Below, in pieces: positions 23,099 to 40,141 of a DNA stretch of 40,141 bases. A program made the translations under genes and the position numbers. The stretch lies in IMG/VR virus record IMGVR_UViG_2534682091_000016; one strand, given 5' to 3'. The stretch is from a virus (Duplodnaviria > Heunggongvirae > Uroviricota > Caudoviricetes). Position 1 is the stretch's first letter. Every line of letters begins with the position of its first letter. The notes below the pieces were generated by a model. It was not told the origin of the DNA. It did not search any database and saw nothing but the letters and a program-made list of their open reading frames with translations.

Positions 23099-24061
23099 CT
23101 AAATCAGAAAGTGACTCATATTAGATCTATAAATATCAGAATTTATCTTAATTTTGCTTATTGACTCAGATATTACATTCATCAGTGAATCATAGTCTTG
23201 ACTAGTGCGCAAGGGATTAGCCAATTCATTATCAACAAGTTGTTGAGTTCCTTCGCAATTAAGTCCCAGTGGATTATCAGCCTTATGCGGTACAACAGCA
23301 AAAATAGGTCTTGCCGCTTTAATAGCAAAATCCGCCTGCGTCATTGTCCCACTATTTTTTGCTGCTTCGATTAGTATCGAAACTGCTGATAAACCTACCT
23401 GGATTCTGTTGCGTTGCACAAATGACTGCTTGAATGCAGGCCTCCCTACAGGATACTCAGAAATCCAAGCCCCACCGTTAGATAAAATTTCATTTGCTAA
23501 TCTAGCATTTTGTTTAGGCTTAGCGCTCTCTAAACCATGAGCTAATACAGCAATTGTTTTAGCACCTGCCTTAAGAGCTGCCTTGTGTGCATTTGTATCA
23601 GTACCAATAGCTAGGCCGCTTACAATCACCACACCTCTTTCACAGATTTTCTTGGTAATTCTCTTCGTAATTTCTCCCCCTGCCATAGAAACTTCACGAG
23701 AACCAACAATTGCAACTCCTGGCATCTCACTAAGAATATTTACGTCCCCCTTCAAATATAACATTGCTGGGGGATTTGGCGTAATTGCTAAACAAATAGG
23801 GTATTTAGCATCTCCAAAAGGAATTGGAACAATCCCCAATGACAAATGCTTGCTCAAATAGTCTTCAGCATTATGCAATGACGCTATAGAAAAGGCGGAT
23901 TTTAAAATCCCGGCTGAATTAACACACTCAACCAATTCATATTCATCGGAAATAATATGGAATGGAATATCGTTAAATAATTTAAGCAACCCTTGTTCTG
24001 ATGCAAGTCTATCAACCTGTACCGATAGACCTAACAATATTTTGAATTGGGAAGGGTGCAT
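23099..24061 (-). CDS. DprA/Smf-like Rossmann-fold protein (accessory, candidate defence component)
   Basis: Core (GVVIVSGLAIGTDTNAHKAALKAGAKTIAVLAHGL...ISEYP...FVQRNRIQVGLS...IEAAKNSGT) aligns by eye with E. coli Smf/DprA. Start set at the Met with a GAGGAG Shine-Dalgarno, 4 nt after the PRTase stop. AT-rich codon usage. Confidence 0.7.
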   Translation of the reverse strand: MHPSQFKILLGLSVQVDRLASEQGLLKLFNDIPFHIISDEYELVECVNSAGILKSAFSIASLHNAEDYLSKHLSLGIVPIPFGDAKYPICLAITPNPPAMLYLKGDVNILSEMPGVAIVGSREVSMAGGEITKRITKKICERGVVIVSGLAIGTDTNAHKAALKAGAKTIAVLAHGLESAKPKQNARLANEILSNGGAWISEYPVGRPAFKQSFVQRNRIQVGLSAVSILIEAAKNSGTMTQADFAIKAARPIFAVVPHKADNPLGLNCEGTQQLVDNELANPLRTSQDYDSLMNVISESISKIKINSDIYRSNMSHFLI

Positions 24062-24065
24062 TATT

Positions 24066-24635
24066 TCACTCCTCATAATTAGCTGTTTCTAGTAACGCCA
24101 GTGGCAATATTGTCTTTGCGCCTGCATATCTTAACAGATAATAGCACGCCGTCATACTCCCCCCAGTTGTAGTAACATCATCAATAAGGAGAATAACCTT
24201 ATCAGCCACATTGGATGTAACTCCGATTGTTGACATATGATGTTCGACAGAACGATCTCCGCCCCCCTTATGAGCACTCACTACTGTTGTTTTTCTCTGT
24301 AATGATTGGTTATATACAGCATTAGGAAATTTTTTCGCAATATCTTGCGCTATTTTTATTAAAGCTTGAGATACTTTTCCCTCAGCATGAGAAGGAACAA
24401 TTGTTATCTCAAAGGGCACGTCGGTAAAAGCAACCCTACCAATCACATAGCTTTGGAGGCTAGAAGTTAAAAGTTGGGTAAAAATATTAACAGCCTTTGC
24501 ATACCCGGAATTTGAAGCGTCCTTCAAATCCATCATTGCCTTTGAAAGTCTATCCCCGGAACGAGGATTTCGCTCTCCTCGATATCGCCAAGGATGATAT
24601 GTACCGCAAGAGTAAATTTTGATTGGCCCCATCAT
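24066..24635 (-). CDS. Phosphoribosyltransferase-domain protein (ComF/PRTase-like; accessory, candidate defence component)
   Basis: 189 aa with the PRPP-binding signature VILLIDDVTTTGGS; co-oriented and near-abutting with the DprA-like gene. Confidence 0.7.
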   Translation of the reverse strand: MMGPIKIYSCGTYHPWRYRGERNPRSGDRLSKAMMDLKDASNSGYAKAVNIFTQLLTSSLQSYVIGRVAFTDVPFEITIVPSHAEGKVSQALIKIAQDIAKKFPNAVYNQSLQRKTTVVSAHKGGGDRSVEHHMSTIGVTSNVADKVILLIDDVTTTGGSMTACYYLLRYAGAKTILPLALLETANYEE

Positions 24636-32391: not shown

Positions 32392-33408
32392 ATGACTGTC
32401 AGAAAACAGCCAAACGGCAAATGGTTGTGTGAGTGCTATCCCAATGGACGCAATGGCAAGCGCGTGCGTAAGCAATTTGCTACGAAAGGAGAAGCCATTG
32501 CTTTTGAAAGCTTCACAATGGAAGAAGTGAATAAAAAACCGTGGCTAGGTGAAAAGGATGATCGGCGACGCCTATCAGAATTAATTGAGCTTTGGTATTC
32601 CCTGTATGGCCAGACACTCGCAGACCCCAAGCGCCTCATGGCGAAACTTAGAATTATCTGTAATGGTCTAGGCGACCCCATCGCCTCAGAACTGACAGCC
32701 GGTGACTTTACAAAATACCGCGAAGCACGGTTAAAAGGCGACGTTCGTAACGAAGACGGCACACTAATGTCGCCAGTAAAACCACGCACGGTGAATCTTG
32801 AGCAACGTAACCTATCATCGGTTTTCGGCACATTGAAAAAACTAGGCCACTGGTCAGCACCAAATCCTCTCGCCGGGCTGCCAACATTTAAAATCGCTGA
32901 GGGGGAACTGGCGTTCCTGACCTCGGAAGAAATTAAACGTCTGCTAGATGCCTGCGCTGATTCTCAAAACCCCAGTCTGCTTTTGATTGCAAAAATATGC
33001 CTGGCCACCGGCGCACGCTGGAGTGAAGCCGAAAACCTGCAGGGCCATCAGTTATCTAAATACCGCATCACTTATACCAAGACGAAGGGCAAGAAAAACC
33101 GCACCGTGCCGATATCTCAAGATCTGTATGACGAACTCCCCAAGAACAGAGGGAAGCTATTCACCCCGTGCAGAAAAGCCTTTGAACGGGCAGTAAAGCG
33201 AGCTGGCATCGAGCTGCCAGAGGGCCAATGCACTCACGTGCTACGTCATACATTCGCCAGTCATTTTATGATGAATGGCGGAAACATACTGGTCCTACGC
33301 GATATTCTGGGCCATGCCGATATAAAAATGACGATGATTTACGCCCACTTTTCGCCGGATCATCTTGAAGATGCAGTTACTAAAAACCCTTTATGCAACT
33401 TAAGATAG
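32392..33408 (+). CDS. int: Tyrosine integrase (P2/186-type)
   Basis: 338 aa with catalytic signature HVLRHTFAS...GH...MIYAH near the C-terminus; reads toward the distal att repeat. Confidence 0.9.
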   Translation: MTVRKQPNGKWLCECYPNGRNGKRVRKQFATKGEAIAFESFTMEEVNKKPWLGEKDDRRRLSELIELWYSLYGQTLADPKRLMAKLRIICNGLGDPIASELTAGDFTKYREARLKGDVRNEDGTLMSPVKPRTVNLEQRNLSSVFGTLKKLGHWSAPNPLAGLPTFKIAEGELAFLTSEEIKRLLDACADSQNPSLLLIAKICLATGARWSEAENLQGHQLSKYRITYTKTKGKKNRTVPISQDLYDELPKNRGKLFTPCRKAFERAVKRAGIELPEGQCTHVLRHTFASHFMMNGGNILVLRDILGHADIKMTMIYAHFSPDHLEDAVTKNPLCNLR

Positions 33409-33786: not shown

Positions 33787-35523
33787 CTACTCAAGAAGAT
33801 ATTCTAACTCATCTTTTATCGGGATAACTTGCTCATAAAGTCGGTGATATGACTTCCCAATTGCGCCTCTGAATTGTATTAACTTTGGTGGCTTGTTACC
33901 TATATTAATAATATGGTCTTGAGCTATACCTGGGTAGGGATCAATAAATACAATTTCAGATATACCTAACTGATAAGCTTTTTTCGCACACAGCTCACAG
34001 GGACTGGCAGTTGTATATAACCTCCCCCCCTGAACGCCAATGCCACCATATTTTGCAAGTTGTAAAAATGCGTTTTCCTCAGCATGTAATGCACGTGTAT
34101 GAACTTGATTACCTTTTTTATCTTTATCAAGATCATTATGTATATCTTTAAAACAATAAGATAAGTTCCTGCCTCTATAAATATCACCAGTTTTATCTAT
34201 CGCCCTAAAATTTAATAGTTTCTCATTAGCTTTAATTCTGAAAGAACTATTATTTCTCTCATAATAACTGTACACTTTTTCATCAAAGTCGTTCATTAGG
34301 CCATCTAGCGATCTCATAGAGCAAGGAATCTGACCGTTGGCGACATCATTCCAACCCACTGATTTTATTGAATTTTCACCATCAGTTACTACAGCTCCCA
34401 CCTGTCTAGATATACAACCAGAGTTTAATTTTACCGTATACGCAACTTGCATAACCCTTTCCATTGCAGTAGGTGTTATCAGACCAGGATGCTTCATCAG
34501 TGCGATGTACCACGCTAATTGTGCTTTTAAAATATTGTCATTATCAAATTCATTTTTTGGGTTAAAAATGTGTATATCTGATAGTTCAATGCATTTAGTT
34601 ACATTTGGATTAGTGAGATGTTTGTAAGAGTTATCACCTTTACCTGACTCTACAGAATCTATTTCCTCTATCTGCTTTTCAGAAAACTTATGTAGTTTCC
34701 GCAAATAGTTTGTTCGATGTTCATCTGGGGCATTTATTGACATTAAATGAAATGCAGAATATCTATCCTTAAAAAATTTTGCTTCATATGGATTTCTAAT
34801 AGCATCTATGACAATTAATGCGTTATCTCTTTTGCTTTTTCTTATTAATTTAATAACCCTATTAATAGTTTCCGGCAAATGAAAAACAGATTTAGGTATA
34901 AACTCTTTATCTTCAAAATCGACTTCAATACGCCCACGGCGTCTAATTGACTTACCTGCTAACTGATAGACTGAAACATATAAATTTGAGTTTATCGCAT
35001 TTAGTTCAGCTTTGAATTCCTTAGTAAATTTTCTAACTAACCTCAAAATTGATATAAATTTATTAATCGTTTTTTCATTAAGCTTCAATTCACTATTATG
35101 ATCAAGCAAATTCTCAATTACATTTTTAAATCTTGTTAAAATGAGATTATCTGAAAATACACCAAAAGTTAATACATTATCTAAATGCTCTTTACTGATA
35201 GATTTATTAGATGATAGAATAAACTCAGAAGCTTCTTCAACTGTTAACATCAAAAGATACGCTGAGATTAGGTCACTCACCTTAATTGAGTAAAAATTTT
35301 CCCAGTGATTTTCTGCGAATTTTTTAACTATATTATAACGATGGACATCCAATCCCTTGTAAAAACCCTGTAATTTACTTACATCAGGGAAGACTGTTTT
35401 TTCGTTTTCAAGAATATTAGCTGTTGTTGTGCAACCAGAACCAGTTCGACCTGTCAAACCGACTAAAATAAACTGCCCATTTTCAAGGAAAAGCTCACTA
35501 ACGAATTTTTTTTCTTTCATCAC
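33787..35523 (-). CDS. Kinase-like P-loop domain fused to CMP/dCMP-type deaminase domain (candidate defensive dCTP deaminase)
   Basis: 578 aa; N-terminal P-loop GLTGRTGSGCTT; C-terminal zinc-deaminase motifs HAEENA and SPCELCAKK; strongly AT-rich compared with the flanking prophage genes. Confidence 0.7.
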   Translation of the reverse strand: MMKEKKFVSELFLENGQFILVGLTGRTGSGCTTTANILENEKTVFPDVSKLQGFYKGLDVHRYNIVKKFAENHWENFYSIKVSDLISAYLLMLTVEEASEFILSSNKSISKEHLDNVLTFGVFSDNLILTRFKNVIENLLDHNSELKLNEKTINKFISILRLVRKFTKEFKAELNAINSNLYVSVYQLAGKSIRRRGRIEVDFEDKEFIPKSVFHLPETINRVIKLIRKSKRDNALIVIDAIRNPYEAKFFKDRYSAFHLMSINAPDEHRTNYLRKLHKFSEKQIEEIDSVESGKGDNSYKHLTNPNVTKCIELSDIHIFNPKNEFDNDNILKAQLAWYIALMKHPGLITPTAMERVMQVAYTVKLNSGCISRQVGAVVTDGENSIKSVGWNDVANGQIPCSMRSLDGLMNDFDEKVYSYYERNNSSFRIKANEKLLNFRAIDKTGDIYRGRNLSYCFKDIHNDLDKDKKGNQVHTRALHAEENAFLQLAKYGGIGVQGGRLYTTASPCELCAKKAYQLGISEIVFIDPYPGIAQDHIINIGNKPPKLIQFRGAIGKSYHRLYEQVIPIKDELEYLLE

Positions 35524-35715: not shown

Positions 35716-35760
35716 ATGTAGGAATTTCGGACGCGGGTTCAACTCCCGCCAGCTCCACCA
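35716..35760. repeat. 45-bp att direct repeat, copy 2 (junction between the two elements)
   Basis: Exact copy of ssrA 1016..1060; the P4-type integrase gene starts about 165 nt downstream. Confidence 0.9.
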
Positions 35761-35925
35761 CTTTTTAGTTGTTTGAAGTTCAATGAAGTCTACTAAGCCC
35801 ACACAGCACAAGCTCTGCGGGCTTTTTTACGTCTATTGTCGTCCAGTGAGAATTGCTGAGAACTACGAGTTATGGCACCCTGAATGGGACCCACTAAGAA
35901 GGGTCCAAAAACCGAGGGTCCCAAA

Positions 35926-37155
35926 ATGGCAAAAATCGCTAAGAAGCTCACTGACACTGAAATCAAAAGCACCAAGCCAGCCGATAAAGAAATCAACTTG
36001 TTTGACGGTGATGGTCTGATTCTACGAATCGCTCCTTTGGCGAAAGGAGGCAAGAAAAATTGGTATTTCAGGTATGCAGTACCAGTGAGCAAGAAAAGAA
36101 CCAAAATGAGCCTTGGGACATATCCTCACCTTACCCTTGCAAGAGCCAGAGCCTTACGTGATGAATATCTCTCCTTTCTGGCAAATGGTGTTGATCCCCA
36201 AATCCATAACAACGATAAGGCGAAGGCATTAAAGAGTGCTACTGAGCACACTCTCCAAGCCGTAGCGCGGAAATGGTTAGATGAGAAGGTAAAGACATCA
36301 GGTATCTCACAAGACCATGCAGCAGACATCTGGCGCAGCTTAGAGAGAAATGTCTTTCCCGGTCTGGGTAATGTCCCTATCAATGAGATCCGACCTAAGC
36401 TCTTAAAACAACACCTTGATCCTATTGAGCAACGAGGCGTATTGGAAACTCTACGCCGTATCATTTCACGTCTGAATGAAATCTTCCGGTGGGCAGCTAC
36501 TGAAGAACTTATTGAGTTCAACCCGGCTGACAACCTTGGTCAAAGATTCAGTAAACCAAAAAAGCAAAATATGCCTGCCCTTCCCCCAAGCGAATTGCCA
36601 AGGTTTATGGAATCTTTGACGAATGCGTCAATCCGGTTGGAAACACGTATGCTAATTGAATGGCAATTGTTGACATGGGTTCGTCCGGGTGAAGCCGTTC
36701 GCGCAAGGTGGTCTGATATTGATACAACCAACAGCATTTGGAACATTCCTGCTGATTTCATGAAAATGAAAAAGCTTCACAAAGTTCCTTTGAGTAAAGA
36801 AGCTTTGCGCATCCTTGAATTAATGAAATCAATAAGTGGGCATAGAGAATGGGTTTTCCCCAGCATAAAAGCGCCTCTTAATCATATGCATGAACAAACA
36901 GCCAACGCAGCTATCATCCGAATGGGGTTCGGAGGCGAGCTTGTAGCTCACGGTATGCGTTCTATTGCACGAACAGCGGCAGAGGAGTCTGGTAAATTCA
37001 GAGCTGAAGTTCTTGAGGCAGCGCTTGCCCACTCGAAAAAAGATGAAATTATCGCAGCATACAATCGTGCAGAATATCTGATAGAGCGACAGAGTTTGAT
37101 GCAATGGTGGAGTGATTACGTTCAAGCTCAAAGATCAAATGCTCTGGTAGCCTAA
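35926..37155 (+). CDS. P4-type tyrosine integrase (CP4-57 IntA-like)
   Basis: N-terminus MAKIAKKLTDTEIKSTKPADKE...DGDGL is the typical P4-family arm-binding start; HGMRS and C-terminal Tyr region present; GAGGG Shine-Dalgarno. Longest ORF starts at 35884. Confidence 0.85.
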   Translation: MAKIAKKLTDTEIKSTKPADKEINLFDGDGLILRIAPLAKGGKKNWYFRYAVPVSKKRTKMSLGTYPHLTLARARALRDEYLSFLANGVDPQIHNNDKAKALKSATEHTLQAVARKWLDEKVKTSGISQDHAADIWRSLERNVFPGLGNVPINEIRPKLLKQHLDPIEQRGVLETLRRIISRLNEIFRWAATEELIEFNPADNLGQRFSKPKKQNMPALPPSELPRFMESLTNASIRLETRMLIEWQLLTWVRPGEAVRARWSDIDTTNSIWNIPADFMKMKKLHKVPLSKEALRILELMKSISGHREWVFPSIKAPLNHMHEQTANAAIIRMGFGGELVAHGMRSIARTAAEESGKFRAEVLEAALAHSKKDEIIAAYNRAEYLIERQSLMQWWSDYVQAQRSNALVA

Positions 37156-37193
37156 GTATCAGAATAGCTAATATAATCCTGAAGGTAAAGAAA

Positions 37194-37610
37194 ATGGAAA
37201 CCCTATTCAAAGTTTTTGAAAAATTTAGTTCCAGACCACTTTTTTTTATTTTTTTCGGACTCTCACTTTGTGAATTTTTTCAGAAACAATCTGTTCTGAT
37301 GAATCCATCAGCAGATAACATCGCGAAATTATTCGCAGCCATGATATTAGTTGTTTTTTTTACTTGGGGATTTGAATGGCTAATCTTCAAGTTCAATGTA
37401 AACCTTGAACCTCATGATCAAGGCGATATTGGACCAACAATTGGAACGGCTACTTTAGCTGTATACTTAGTTTATGCCTTTCACTTTCTCAGTGAAAATC
37501 CTGAAGCATTAAATTTAAAGTTATTAACTAACTCTGGCTTTATATACAGCACAACTCTATTATTATTCTCATTAGAATGCATGAAGCTTAGAAGACTTAA
37601 ACAAAAATAA
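37194..37610 (+). CDS. Hypothetical integral membrane protein (about 4 TM helices)
   Basis: 138 aa with four hydrophobic stretches; AT-rich; between the P4-type int and the two-component-like module. Confidence 0.5.
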   Translation: METLFKVFEKFSSRPLFFIFFGLSLCEFFQKQSVLMNPSADNIAKLFAAMILVVFFTWGFEWLIFKFNVNLEPHDQGDIGPTIGTATLAVYLVYAFHFLSENPEALNLKLLTNSGFIYSTTLLLFSLECMKLRRLKQK

Positions 37611-37682
37611 ACAACATCATTGTGATGATAAATATAAAATAGGCATGGCGAAAAAAAAATCACCACGCCTAAAATATAATAA

Positions 37683-39449
37683 TTATGGTAGCATCATTGA
37701 TACATAATCCACACCAATCCTTGAGCTATACTGAGACGCTATAGCCTGATATCTTTCTGCATAACCAGTTCTCAGTTGAGATTTAAGTTTGAGTCGGACA
37801 GGAACATTTTGCACGTTGCCATCCATATTACTTAAAAACACGGCAGAAATAATATTTTTTTCTTCGCCATCAACTGTTGTTCCATGATTCAACACCACCA
37901 TATAATCAACAACAGGAAGCGTTTTATCCCCTTCGAAAATAGAGAGATATTTTCTTTGATTTTTATGCATTACATATATATATTTCGAATGTTCAGCAAA
38001 TGGCAATGCTTTACTCTGACTGGCGTTAAAAAGCTCCAGAACTTTAATGAGCCTGTGCGGACTTAATCTTACATGGTGAGGGTCGTTACCCTGAGTAGGA
38101 ACCAAATCACATGCCGCAGATACACATAAATACCATTTGTTCGACTCTGTATCAAAGAAAATAGTGCCAGTAGAAATATGACCATCTTCAAAATTCTTTG
38201 AAGACAAATTCATATTTAAAGCATGATACATTTCGTGATAAGTATCATTATTTGATGGCAGATCCATTTTTGAAGAGCAATATTGGAGCAATGCAGCAAC
38301 TCCGCTGTTAGCGTATTCATTTGAATAGCTATCAAAAACACTTTTGATAAATTCATCCAGCGTATTATTATTTTTAAGTCTTTGATAAAGCTCTTCTGAT
38401 AAATTACCAAATACAAAGTCAATATTTCTACATCTAATATCAGGCGAGTCTGATTTTAATATCTCATTTAACCACGCAGCTTGACCGTAATGATCGTTAG
38501 CCAAATGATTTACAAAAGATAAAGCCTCAGCTTCGATTGCATTCTGAATTTCAGATTTTATTAACTGATAATAAGATGGTTTCCATTCAATGAGAGAATC
38601 ATTGAGAGTTTGCCAAATCCTATCTCCATCGTTTTCATGATCATCTTGAACCTTATGAAATAGGGAGACAAAGATATTACCACATTGAATCCATTTTACT
38701 CCGCTTTCATCACCCCGAATGACATTGCCAGATGTGTTGCTAGAAATAATTGCATTTCTAGACACAGCATATTCTGCAATCATTTTTGCAATGAAGTTTT
38801 TATCCTTTTGATCCTCCAACACAGCATCATCATGTATTAATCTTTTAATTCTTCTACAAGGCTTACTGTCTTTAATATAGGCTATTGTTTCATCTCTTGT
38901 GAGAGCTTTATTACCATTATCATTTAAGTTCGGTAATACAACGTCTTCCCAATAACTTTGGACATCTTCATTATCGTAGTCAATGATCAAGCTGTTGATA
39001 TCCAGAGCACCTTTGAGAGTCGATGATATCTGCATCCAAACCGTTTCTAAATTCTCTCTAGTATATATTACAATCATATTTAAATGATCGGAGTCTTTCA
39101 AATCTTGTAATAGTTTAAGTGTTTTATCAGGTGCATTATTATCAAGATGATAATCTACAATAATAAGATCTGATTTTCTAATCCGATCCACATCGAAATT
39201 AACAGAACCATTGTCAACATCACAAATCATATTTTTAGATTGAAAAAAGCTCTCAAGAGTAGCGGCTCGTTTAGATGAGTCAATTTTGTTGTAGTCTAAA
39301 TCAACTTCGTTATTCAACGCCCTGATTGATTCAGAATACGTCAGAAAATCGTCATCAATCATGACAACGGAACGAATTGCATTTTCGCAGAAAGTTTTCT
39401 GGACAAGAGAATTATAATTTGCCACTGTCATATTAGAACTCCACTCCAT
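37683..39449 (-). CDS. Receiver (REC)-like domain protein with large uncharacterised C-terminal domain
   Basis: 588 aa; N-terminus has receiver hallmarks in order (VVMIDDD, LIIVDYHL, IVIYTRE, downstream Lys); remaining 450 aa unrecognised; start overlaps the upstream ATPase gene by 17 nt. Confidence 0.6.
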   Translation of the reverse strand: MEWSSNMTVANYNSLVQKTFCENAIRSVVMIDDDFLTYSESIRALNNEVDLDYNKIDSSKRAATLESFFQSKNMICDVDNGSVNFDVDRIRKSDLIIVDYHLDNNAPDKTLKLLQDLKDSDHLNMIVIYTRENLETVWMQISSTLKGALDINSLIIDYDNEDVQSYWEDVVLPNLNDNGNKALTRDETIAYIKDSKPCRRIKRLIHDDAVLEDQKDKNFIAKMIAEYAVSRNAIISSNTSGNVIRGDESGVKWIQCGNIFVSLFHKVQDDHENDGDRIWQTLNDSLIEWKPSYYQLIKSEIQNAIEAEALSFVNHLANDHYGQAAWLNEILKSDSPDIRCRNIDFVFGNLSEELYQRLKNNNTLDEFIKSVFDSYSNEYANSGVAALLQYCSSKMDLPSNNDTYHEMYHALNMNLSSKNFEDGHISTGTIFFDTESNKWYLCVSAACDLVPTQGNDPHHVRLSPHRLIKVLELFNASQSKALPFAEHSKYIYVMHKNQRKYLSIFEGDKTLPVVDYMVVLNHGTTVDGEEKNIISAVFLSNMDGNVQNVPVRLKLKSQLRTGYAERYQAIASQYSSRIGVDYVSMMLP

Positions 39450-39818
39450 TGAACTGGATCACAAAATTAGCGCCATCTTTTATTAAATAGTTATCGCCTT
39501 CATCAGGTTCTGAATACCATATTTTATGATGTGCAACAGCAAGGTTTTCTCGACATAGATACAGACCTACCCCATGTCCATTTGCTCTTTTGCTATAAAA
39601 TAGTTCAAATAGTCGCGGGATATCATCGGTATCAATTGCCGGACCAGAATTTGCTATGATAACCAAAGAATTCACAAAACCAATCTTTATGAGCCTATTA
39701 TTTGACAGACTGACCCAATACATTGCATTGTTGATAATATTAGTAAAAACAGGATAGATCCTTGATGGTATATCTGTTATTGCGATTTGCTTAAACTCTT
39801 CACTAAATTCAATAGTTA
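39433..39818 (-). pseudogene. Histidine-kinase-type ATPase (HATPase_c) gene, 5'-truncated by IS3 insertion
   Basis: N-box (VFTNIINNAMYW), G1 (ANSGPAID) and G2 (GHGVGLYL) boxes present; frame is open to the IS3 boundary with no start codon in native sequence; the apparent start of the track ORF lies inside the IS3 terminal repeat. Confidence 0.6.
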
Positions 39819-40141
39819 TGATCTTACCCAGCAATAGTGGACACGCGGCTAAGTGAGTAAACTCTCAGTCAGAGGTGACTCACATGACAAAAACAGTATC
39901 AACCAGTAAAAAACCCCGTAAACAGCATTCGCCTGAATTTCGCAGTGAAGCCCTGAAGCTTGCTGAACGCATCGGTGTTACTGCCGCAGCCCGTGAACTC
40001 AGCCTGTATGAATCACAGCTCTACAACTGGCGCAGTAAACAGCAAAATCAGCAGACGTCTTCTGAACGTGAACTGGAGATGTCTACCGAGATTGCACGTC
40101 TCAAACGCCAGCTGGCAGAACGGGATGAAGAGCTGGCTATC
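39819..40141 (+). mobile_element. IS3 insertion sequence, left end (partial)
   Basis: Terminal sequence TGATCTTACCCAGCAATAGTGGACACGCGG... followed 65 nt later by the orfA start, matching IS3 as recalled. Confidence 0.8.
39884..40141 (+). CDS. insA: IS3 transposase OrfA (partial, continues past window end)
   Basis: Translation MTKTVSTSKKPRKQHSPEFRSEALKLAERIGVTAAARELSLYESQLYNWRSKQQ... matches IS3 OrfA as recalled. Confidence 0.85.
   Translation, partial: MTKTVSTSKKPRKQHSPEFRSEALKLAERIGVTAAARELSLYESQLYNWRSKQQNQQTSSERELEMSTEIARLKRQLAERDEELAI

Follow-up and report, generated by a model that had tools for sequence, protein, structure and literature searches.

A decayed HEF_HK/Response_reg_2 two-component-like module on a P4-type integrase island at ssrA, and the intact operon that its relatives retain

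What is a gene for a histidine-kinase-type ATPase doing beside a large receiver-domain protein with no obvious output, on an AT-rich island next to a P4-type integrase? The question is raised by the right-hand end (positions 37,194 to 40,141) of the IMG/VR virus record IMGVR_UViG_2534682091_000016, a Caudoviricetes stretch of 40,141 nucleotides (nt), analysed here in full as 'the window', which is enterobacterial and Escherichia coli-like in character. An earlier interpretation made from the letters alone (the sequence-only reading) saw in the pair a two-component-like module resembling the defence system Detocs, or perhaps an undescribed variant of it. The elements it named are all present where it placed them, far beyond chance, and it is the identity and the condition of the locus that require revision. 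The pair is a HEF_HK (PF19191)/Response_reg_2 (PF19192) two-component-like pair, a family already described, and the copy in the window is a decayed, pseudogenised relic in which only the receiver protein and a clade-specific membrane open reading frame (ORF) of 138 amino acids (aa) are intact. We put the probability at roughly three in four that the locus is a decayed module of this kind, the intact form of which comprises a methylase, a kinase and a receiver-effector with a likely phospho-gated mechanism.

The receiver gene leads most directly to the family. Its 588-aa ORF (37683-39449, minus strand) matches Pfam PF19192 over residues 25-181 with an E-value of 3.7e-31 and 109.1 bits (cut-off 27), and the receiver fold, whose absence on a profile search had been considered, is confirmed. 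HEF_HK has Response_reg_2 as its sister Pfam entry, and both were created from this very gene pair by Bellieny-Rabelo, Pretorius and Moleleki (2021, Genome Biol Evol, PMC8011034), whose data set included E. coli members, and with both domains defined as families in 2021 the suggestion of an undescribed variant falls. Their survey reports a linkage of the two domains of 91.6% in 644 regions and a main kinase architecture of HATPase_c_3 + HEF_HK + HATPase_c, with HATPase_c_3 in 83% of family kinases and wanting in 34/222 architectures. The authors also report an enrichment of C5 methylases, Vsr and HNH_2 near the pair and a kinship of the kinases to paraMORC ATPases, and suggest that the pair controls restriction-modification (R-M) systems. 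The survey contains no experiments, and the output region of the receiver protein is given no description in the Results or Discussion. The locus in the window resembles the described family in its receiver score and in the adjacency of the two genes on one strand, and the links to C5 methylases, Vsr and HNH_2 were found again; it differs in having no methylase, no MORC-like HATPase_c_3 domain and no His-box, and in being cut by IS3.

The receiver gene itself is intact, and the protein is identical to RefSeq WP_000214990.1 and 100% identical to cluster P0001, which holds 1966 member sequences. Translation could begin at ATG 39449, giving 588 aa, or at ATG 39431, giving 582 aa (37683..39431, minus strand). 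In the alignment the Met encoded at 39431 is where the majority of homologues begin, RefSeq annotates 582 aa, and this start places the kinase stop codon 1 nt from the receiver start in the same 'TAA-N-ATG' kinase/receiver junction that intact operons possess. The 17-nt overlap between the two genes reported by the sequence-only reading exists only with ATG 39449 and is probably not real.

A full-length structure model combined with the alignment of homologues yields a map of three domains (residue numbers follow the 588-aa ORF). The receiver (REC) domain occupies residues ~25-290 (38580..39377, minus strand), and the hallmarks first recognised by eye, a DDD acidic pocket, an Asp in LIIVDYHL and a Thr in IVIYT, prove to be D32/D33, the phospho-acceptor D99 and T130, all invariant, together with K266, in 37 homologues down to 23% identity. 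In the model alpha4 is separated from a beta5 hairpin, at whose end the invariant K266 lies, by a helical insert of ~100 aa (~151-232); this insert (window 38780-38994) is predicted with high confidence, is unusual among receiver domains and may serve, for instance, to dock the kinase or the output domain. An all-helical middle domain follows at residues ~293-416 (38202..38573, minus strand, from model and alignment), with a nearly invariant motif SEIQNxIE (S299, E300, Q302, N303, E306), no Pfam match and no match in the PDB by sequence or by fold. The protein is completed by a beta-rich domain with a terminal helix at residues ~417-572 (37734..38201, minus strand), in which G428, T429, C447, L559 and R560 are invariant, and by an equally invariant R577-x-G-x-D581 tail. 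No DNA-binding domain was detected in the protein by any method used, in agreement with the original impression of a large output without one. In NCBIfam the receiver protein has no match, and the kinase has weak kinase matches below threshold only. Searched against 1.84 billion representatives, a profile built on the output region picks out 631 clusters at 50% identity; since nearly all of the best 150 of these are 570-680 aa long with the same layout, the output domain appears essentially confined to fusion with a Response_reg_2 receiver.

On the structure model, the C-terminal beta-rich domain is the candidate effector of the protein. Its predicted fold resembles that of the MazF, Kid (PemK) and CcdB toxins, from which it differs by its fusion to a receiver domain; the resemblance is at fold level only, with sequence identity of 4-11%. 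A Foldseek search of the C-terminal model against the PDB returned nothing below E 0.005, with TM-scores about 0.1, the whole receiver-family profile matched no PDB sequence, and eight diverse C-terminal domains searched in isolation against Pfam at E <= 10 gave scattered chance matches, with PemK_toxin and CcdB not among them. A survey of neighbours at species-level loci showed no conserved antitoxin-like gene next to the receiver gene. The MazF/CcdB-like assignment is accordingly a weak one.

If the receiver gene is whole, its partner is a stump. The 133-aa ORF at 39433-39834 (minus strand) does encode a histidine-kinase-type ATPase domain, matching HATPase_c at E 3.1e-12 and 47.4 bits (cut-off 26.4), and to that extent the sequence-only reading was right about this gene; what survives, however, is only the last 128 codons and the stop of a HEF_HK-type histidine kinase gene of ~990 codons (39433..39818, minus strand, by HATPase_c match and tblastn). 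In a tblastn search with the 988-aa Citrobacter kinase only residues 861-988 align, to 39819-39436. The His-box lies at ~769-829 in the full-length kinase, outside the part that is kept, and no HEF_HK His-box (DHp) is found in the fragment, which retains the ATP-binding (CA) domain from the N-box on and has lost His-box, coiled coil and MORC-like GHKL domain. Without a His-box and its phospho-accepting His, the pair is incapable of phosphotransfer, and thus of two-component signalling, as it stands here. The homology stops at 39819, precisely where the left end of an IS3 element begins (39819..40141, plus strand; terminal inverted repeat, orfA start at 39885), and the window ends inside this element. 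Upstream of codon ~6 of the 133-aa ORF the kinase frame is crowded with stops, and the TTG start of the ORF falls within IS3. The IS3 sequence is 97-98% identical to copies annotated 'IS3 family transposase' in thousands of E. coli genomes. Its junction with the kinase occurs in 0/5426 complete E. coli genomes, and the insertion was rejected as a common allele on that count. A 5.6-kb contig (DAIPZW010000118.1) is 99.9% identical to window 35723-39819 and runs uninterrupted through the IS3 insertion point. It is labelled as part of a Bacteroidales metagenome-assembled genome, carries the E. coli-type truncated kinase and is almost certainly mis-binned E. coli DNA.

The decay did not begin with this insertion. 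The ssrA-island version of the module is found in 560/5426 complete E. coli genomes (~10%), and its uninterrupted allele, in E. coli O111 strain E2863, encodes a 572-aa kinase with HEF_HK (26.1 bits, cut-off 24.1), HATPase_c and a His-box reading 'IISHELEEM'. It is on this allele that the family assignment of the kinase rests, because the window holds a pseudogene fragment without the His-box. The 572-aa kinase is itself without the N-terminal, MORC-like HATPase_c_3 domain, which is missing from the window as well. At the O111 locus the homology to the long form of the kinase sets in, in frame, at long-form residue 378. This point lies 40 codons upstream of the annotated Met (the only usable start), and the homology reaches to within 5 nt of the ygaQ pseudogene that borders the island. 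From this it follows that the methylase and the first ~377 kinase codons, the MORC-like domain included, were lost by deletion in the ssrA-island lineage. For the same reason, and with the long form kept in 45/46 loci surveyed across species (below), the 572-aa kinase was rejected as a natural short form. No methylase lies beside the module in O111 or in E. coli KSC1031, nor between integrase and IS3 in the window. The 5' truncation point of the O111 kinase (L001 12122-12127) falls within 5 nt of a ygaQ pseudogene segment shared with K-12, and in KSC1031 (L009 11154-12316) an IS3 stands exactly at the border of kinase remnant and ygaQ, which suggests that the deletion that took the methylase and the MORC-like domain was IS3-mediated. 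As the window copy is defective, a phage challenge run on it should reveal no effect.

What the module looks like when it is whole is best seen elsewhere. The intact operon consists of a C5 cytosine methylase (at most loci, not all), a soluble kinase of ~1000 aa and a translationally coupled receiver protein of ~580-610 aa. The kinase begins with a GHKL ATPase of MORC/paraMORC type, continues through a coiled coil and the HEF_HK His-box and closes with HATPase_c; the receiver protein carries its receiver domain and a conserved output of ~300 aa. Citrobacter farmeri encodes a C5 methylase, a 988-aa kinase and a 583-aa receiver protein in that order, with the genes overlapping or abutting, inside an ICE (integrative and conjugative element). 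The same order of methylase, kinase and receiver recurs with a 998-aa kinase in an uncultured relative whose receiver protein is 73% identical, and with a 990-aa kinase in Pantoea dispersa. Acinetobacter johnsonii has a P4-type integrase followed by a 993-aa kinase and the receiver gene, with a methylase and HNH_2 convergent to them, and E. coli NCTC86 has a methylase, a 989-aa kinase, a 607-aa receiver protein and HNH_2, a version found in 212/5426 complete genomes; apart from HNH_2, its products are WP_000643690.1, WP_000236931.1 and WP_000886597.1. A three-gene version like that of Citrobacter also exists in Serratia. An independent scan of one genome per species recovered 52 loci, 46 of them with enough upstream DNA, and the completeness of each kinase was judged by hidden Markov models for its N-terminal, middle and C-terminal thirds. 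A full-length kinase of 940-1110 aa abuts the receiver gene in 45/46, the sole exception being an E. coli-type sequence. The retrieval of uninterrupted homologues that the sequence-only reading proposed thus uncovers the intact kinase. In 24/45 loci the first gene upstream of the kinase encodes a C5 methylase, and in 9/43 the first gene downstream of the receiver gene does so; the other immediate neighbours include Vsr (5), HNH or HNH_2 (4), AspBHI/Mrr-type (2) and GmrSD (1). In the loci examined the pair is always on islands, ICEs or satellites, beside integrases, relaxases or Tra genes, and it is widespread on such mobile islands in Proteobacteria, Acidobacteria, Verrucomicrobia and other phyla.

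Among systems of demonstrated function the nearest is Ambrosia (van den Berg et al. 2025, bioRxiv 10.1101/2025.09.30.679545), which comprises an XRE regulator, an N6 methylase, the 747-aa HATPase_c_3/HATPase_c protein AbrB, the 209-aa AbrC, a canonical receiver protein with a wHTH (winged helix-turn-helix), and an HNH nuclease (AbrR-AbrA-AbrB-AbrC-AbrD). Its phage defence needs every gene and the receiver Asp, and its genes are induced upon infection. Residues 1-399 of AbrB, the only part compared, align collinearly (E 5e-11 and 6e-7) with the 988-aa family kinase over its N-terminal half, which is gone from the window, where just the C-terminal ATPase is kept. AbrC compared with the Response_reg_2 profile gives an hhalign probability of 0.3%, which is no similarity. 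With AbrB alignable and AbrC not, Ambrosia is a cousin by way of the kinase rather than the same system. The two are alike in that AbrB, too, is encoded beside a receiver protein, a DNA methylase and an HNH nuclease; they differ in the methylase, N6-adenine in Ambrosia and C5-cytosine here, in the XRE regulator that forms part of Ambrosia, and in the length of the kinase, 747 aa against ~990 aa. The island in the window holds no N6 methylase, HNH or XRE gene.

The resemblance to Detocs fares less well. Detocs (Rousset et al. 2023, bioRxiv 10.1101/2023.01.24.525353) shares with the working model proposed here the idea of a kinase that signals to a receiver fused to a cell-arresting effector in place of a DNA-binding domain. 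Its kinase DtcA, however, senses through TPR repeats, whereas the family kinase has a MORC-like GHKL (HATPase_c_3) N-terminus, and its detection rule requires DtcA, DtcB and DtcC together. A stand-alone receiver like DtcB is encoded neither in the window, as had been noted from the start, nor in the intact operons, and neither PNP, likewise absent from the window in the first account, nor any other known effector family was found in the output by Pfam or PADLOC. No Detocs model was matched. Searches of PADLOC-DB 2.0 for a known defence system gave no meaningful match for receiver protein, kinase fragment, 138-aa ORF or intact kinase, only chance-level ones (E 0.0028 to an unrelated model for the receiver protein, PD-T4-6 at E 0.026 for the intact kinase, none for the fragment). 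An older relative is the group of paraMORC GHKL ATPases of R-M operons, paraMORC1 in particular, described by Iyer, Abhiman and Aravind in 2008 (PMC2292703), in which a GHKL ATPase at the N-terminus is followed by a conserved extension at the C-terminus and whose operons include cytosine methylases together with Vsr and HNH nucleases. That the His-box and the second ATPase form a kinase module, and that there is a receiver partner, went unrecognised in the 2008 paper; we infer that the family kinase may be paraMORC1. Vibrio cholerae WonAB (an ABC ATPase and a nuclease) and VcSduA (a paraMORC3-type Shedu) were considered and are unrelated. A 2026 paper on BREX diversity has nothing on the HEF_HK/Response_reg_2 pair, and the literature on MORC- or GHKL-linked methylase defence systems yielded no paper on Response_reg_2.

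How, then, might the intact module work? The observed base is gene order, translational coupling, phosphorelay residues, methylase linkage, mobile location and homology to a validated defence ATPase. On this base, the MORC-like GHKL domain of the kinase would monitor DNA, either its methylation state or the presence of foreign or replicating DNA, while the linked methylase would mark the DNA of self. The kinase would autophosphorylate on the HEF_HK histidine and pass the phosphate to Asp99 of the receiver protein, which may then free the C-terminal MazF/CcdB-like domain for growth arrest or an attack on nucleic acids. The outcome would be a restriction-like or abortive defence borne on islands, ICEs and satellites. 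Two observations make a defence role plausible: the homology between the kinase and AbrB, from the validated Ambrosia system, and the cytosine-methylase and nuclease contexts in which the pair occurs. About 10% of complete E. coli genomes, moreover, tolerate the receiver protein where the methylase is gone and the kinase is crippled, which fits an effector that stays inactive until phosphorylated. Several points weigh on the other side. At about a quarter of loci no immediate neighbour is a methylase; no experimental work on any Response_reg_2 protein was found in 7.7 million PMC papers and bioRxiv; neither the receiver protein nor the kinase has a model in PADLOC 2023; and the rest of the kinase could sit past IS3, outside the window, in which case the window would record a simple insertion and not a deletion. 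The authors of Ambrosia, moreover, favour transcriptional control over a toxin output, although AbrC is a different, 209-aa receiver protein (bioRxiv 10.1101/2025.09.30.679545).

That preference leads to the alternative we take most seriously, doubtful though we think it: that the receiver protein of the intact family is a regulator, with phosphorylation switching on neighbouring methylase and nuclease genes and the C-terminal region binding DNA or protein. The induction of the Ambrosia genes and their need for the receiver Asp would suit it, as would the control of R-M systems suggested in PMC8011034, the nucleases (Vsr, HNH, HNH_2, AspBHI/Mrr, GmrSD) that adjoin a minority of pairs, and the weakness of the MazF/CcdB-like assignment. 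AbrC, however, is an unrelated protein of 209 aa with a wHTH; many operons, those of the entire Enterobacterales clade included, consist of methylase, kinase and receiver genes alone and offer no separate nuclease as a target of regulation; and an output of ~300 aa rich in invariant polar residues (SEIQN, QLR, RxGxD) suggests an active or binding site. We rank a regulator below an effector because many operons offer no other gene for it to control and because no DNA-binding domain can be seen. The effector reading can be sharpened further, into a form that is speculative and against which we would wager: Response_reg_2 proteins would be phospho-gated toxins, in which a MORC-like DNA-sensing kinase, restrained by cognate C5 methylation of self DNA, unleashes via Asp99 a divergent MazF/CcdB-fold domain.

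Other alternatives concern the E. coli copies and the window itself. The remnant could still function, the orphan receiver being phosphorylated by acetyl phosphate, by a non-cognate kinase or, elsewhere, by the 572-aa kinase, perhaps together with the 138-aa membrane ORF. An intact receiver ORF, identical across a cluster of 1966 sequences and present in the island version in 560/5426 genomes, speaks for this, as do the HEF_HK and HATPase_c that the 572-aa allele keeps, the 34/222 architectures without HATPase_c_3 in the 2021 survey (PMC8011034), and the retention of the 138-aa ORF beside the receiver gene across the Enterobacterales clade. We nevertheless judge it distinctly improbable, for the near-identity of the E. 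coli copies reflects recent common descent and not selection, in-frame homology 40 codons upstream of the only start is typical of a deletion remnant, the kinase is full-length in 45/46 species-level loci, and in the window even the His-box is missing. Far less probable still is a working system of the Detocs type, or an undescribed variant of one, in the window: a kinase, a receiver fused to an output without a detectable DNA-binding domain, and a mobile island beside other defence genes are what one would look for, but a kinase of 128 C-terminal codons with no phospho-donor His refutes it for this copy, and there is no DtcB, no PNP and no matching defence-system model for a system whose detection needs three genes, in a family described in 2021. 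Least credible of all is a housekeeping two-component regulon with a transcription factor as its response regulator. Receiver and kinase domains as such would be at home there; the intact homologues, though, show no DNA-binding output and always lie on islands, ICEs or satellites, they are patchily distributed, the two versions occurring in 560 and 212 of 5426 E. coli genomes, and the kinase is soluble with a MORC-like N-terminus.

The setting of the decayed module is a tandem of mobile elements at the tmRNA gene ssrA (698-1060). A 34.7-kb P2-like prophage (1061-35760) is inserted in ssrA between exact 45-nt repeats at 1016-1060 and 35716-35760, with genes for tail sheath, tape measure, major head protein, terminase, portal, GpA-type nickase and repressor and with an integrase of its own at 32392-33408; the P4-type integrase island follows behind it in tandem. 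The second att repeat (35716..35760, plus strand), an exact direct copy of the last 45 nt of ssrA, is the boundary between the two. To its right come the P4-type integrase, the 138-aa ORF, the 588-aa ORF and the 133-aa ORF, and over 37-40 kb the GC content is 0.34-0.37 against about 0.5-0.6 for most of the window, so that the AT-rich island and its P4-type integrase hold as described from the letters. The integrase, a tyrosine recombinase of 423 aa (35884..37155, plus strand), has the expected Pfam set of Arm-DNA-bind_3 (2.2e-22), Phage_int_M (2.7e-23) and Phage_integrase (1.9e-19).

The ORF list places the 138-aa ORF at 37194..37610 (plus strand), convergent to the receiver gene. It had been taken for a small membrane protein with four transmembrane segments; hydrophobic and convergent it is, while its hydropathy shows one strongly hydrophobic segment and others that are moderately so. 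It has no family match in Pfam, PADLOC-DB 2.0 or NCBIfam. Homologues of 53-81% identity, equally convergent, stand at six other loci (L006, L011, L012, L013, L015 and L016), and none is present at the Citrobacter farmeri or Acinetobacter loci. With its conservation confined to the Enterobacterales clade, the ORF was rejected as a core component.

Other cargo is carried nearby. An AT-rich region adjoining the prophage portal gene (23099-24635, minus strand) encodes a Shosta-type pair, the ShosA-like member a protein of 325 aa with a DprA/DNA_processg_A domain (PADLOC ShosA, E 8.5e-70) and the ShosT-like member one of 189 aa with a phosphoribosyltransferase domain (PADLOC ShosT, E 2.7e-18); Shosta is a known defence system, and its site beside the portal gene is a typical P2 hotspot. 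Between the prophage integrase and the att repeat (33787-35523, minus strand) lies a gene for a 578-aa protein that matches the PADLOC 'dCTPase' model at E 8e-145 and carries a dCMP/cytidine deaminase zinc-binding domain; it belongs to the known nucleotide-depletion defence genes of dCTP-deaminase type and sits in the second P2 hotspot. Near the module copy of E. coli KSC1031 a DarT/NADAR (DarTG) pair adjoins a second integrase on the island (L009 4138-5454), and at another locus (L006 11041-14068) a P4-like satellite beside the module carries SIR2 and a HerA-like ATPase. Given such defence cargo on islands beside module copies, ssrA and the neighbouring att sites make up a defence-island hotspot.

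The locus in the window matters little in itself, a pseudogenised relic on which phage challenge would be uninformative. The family matters more: it is widespread, tightly coupled to cytosine methylases and, through its kinase, related by homology to the kinase-like ATPase of Ambrosia, a recently validated system. To the description of 2021 the present analysis adds a map of the output domains with a candidate MazF/CcdB-like effector, the link to Ambrosia, and the truncation of the common E. coli allele, for which reason intact operons, that of E. coli NCTC86 among them, are the ones to use in experiments. A MORC-type ATPase wired to a His-Asp phosphorelay would be a new coupling of DNA surveillance to an effector; its interest lies in the fact that MORCs in eukaryotes read epigenetic state. 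Were the Response_reg_2 proteins indeed phospho-gated toxins, the methylase-kinase-receiver operons would form a distinct and widespread class of methylation-coupled abortive-infection or restriction-like systems, at least 631 clusters strong at 50% identity and independent of a classical restriction nuclease, and the copies on the ssrA islands of E. coli would be its disarmed relics.

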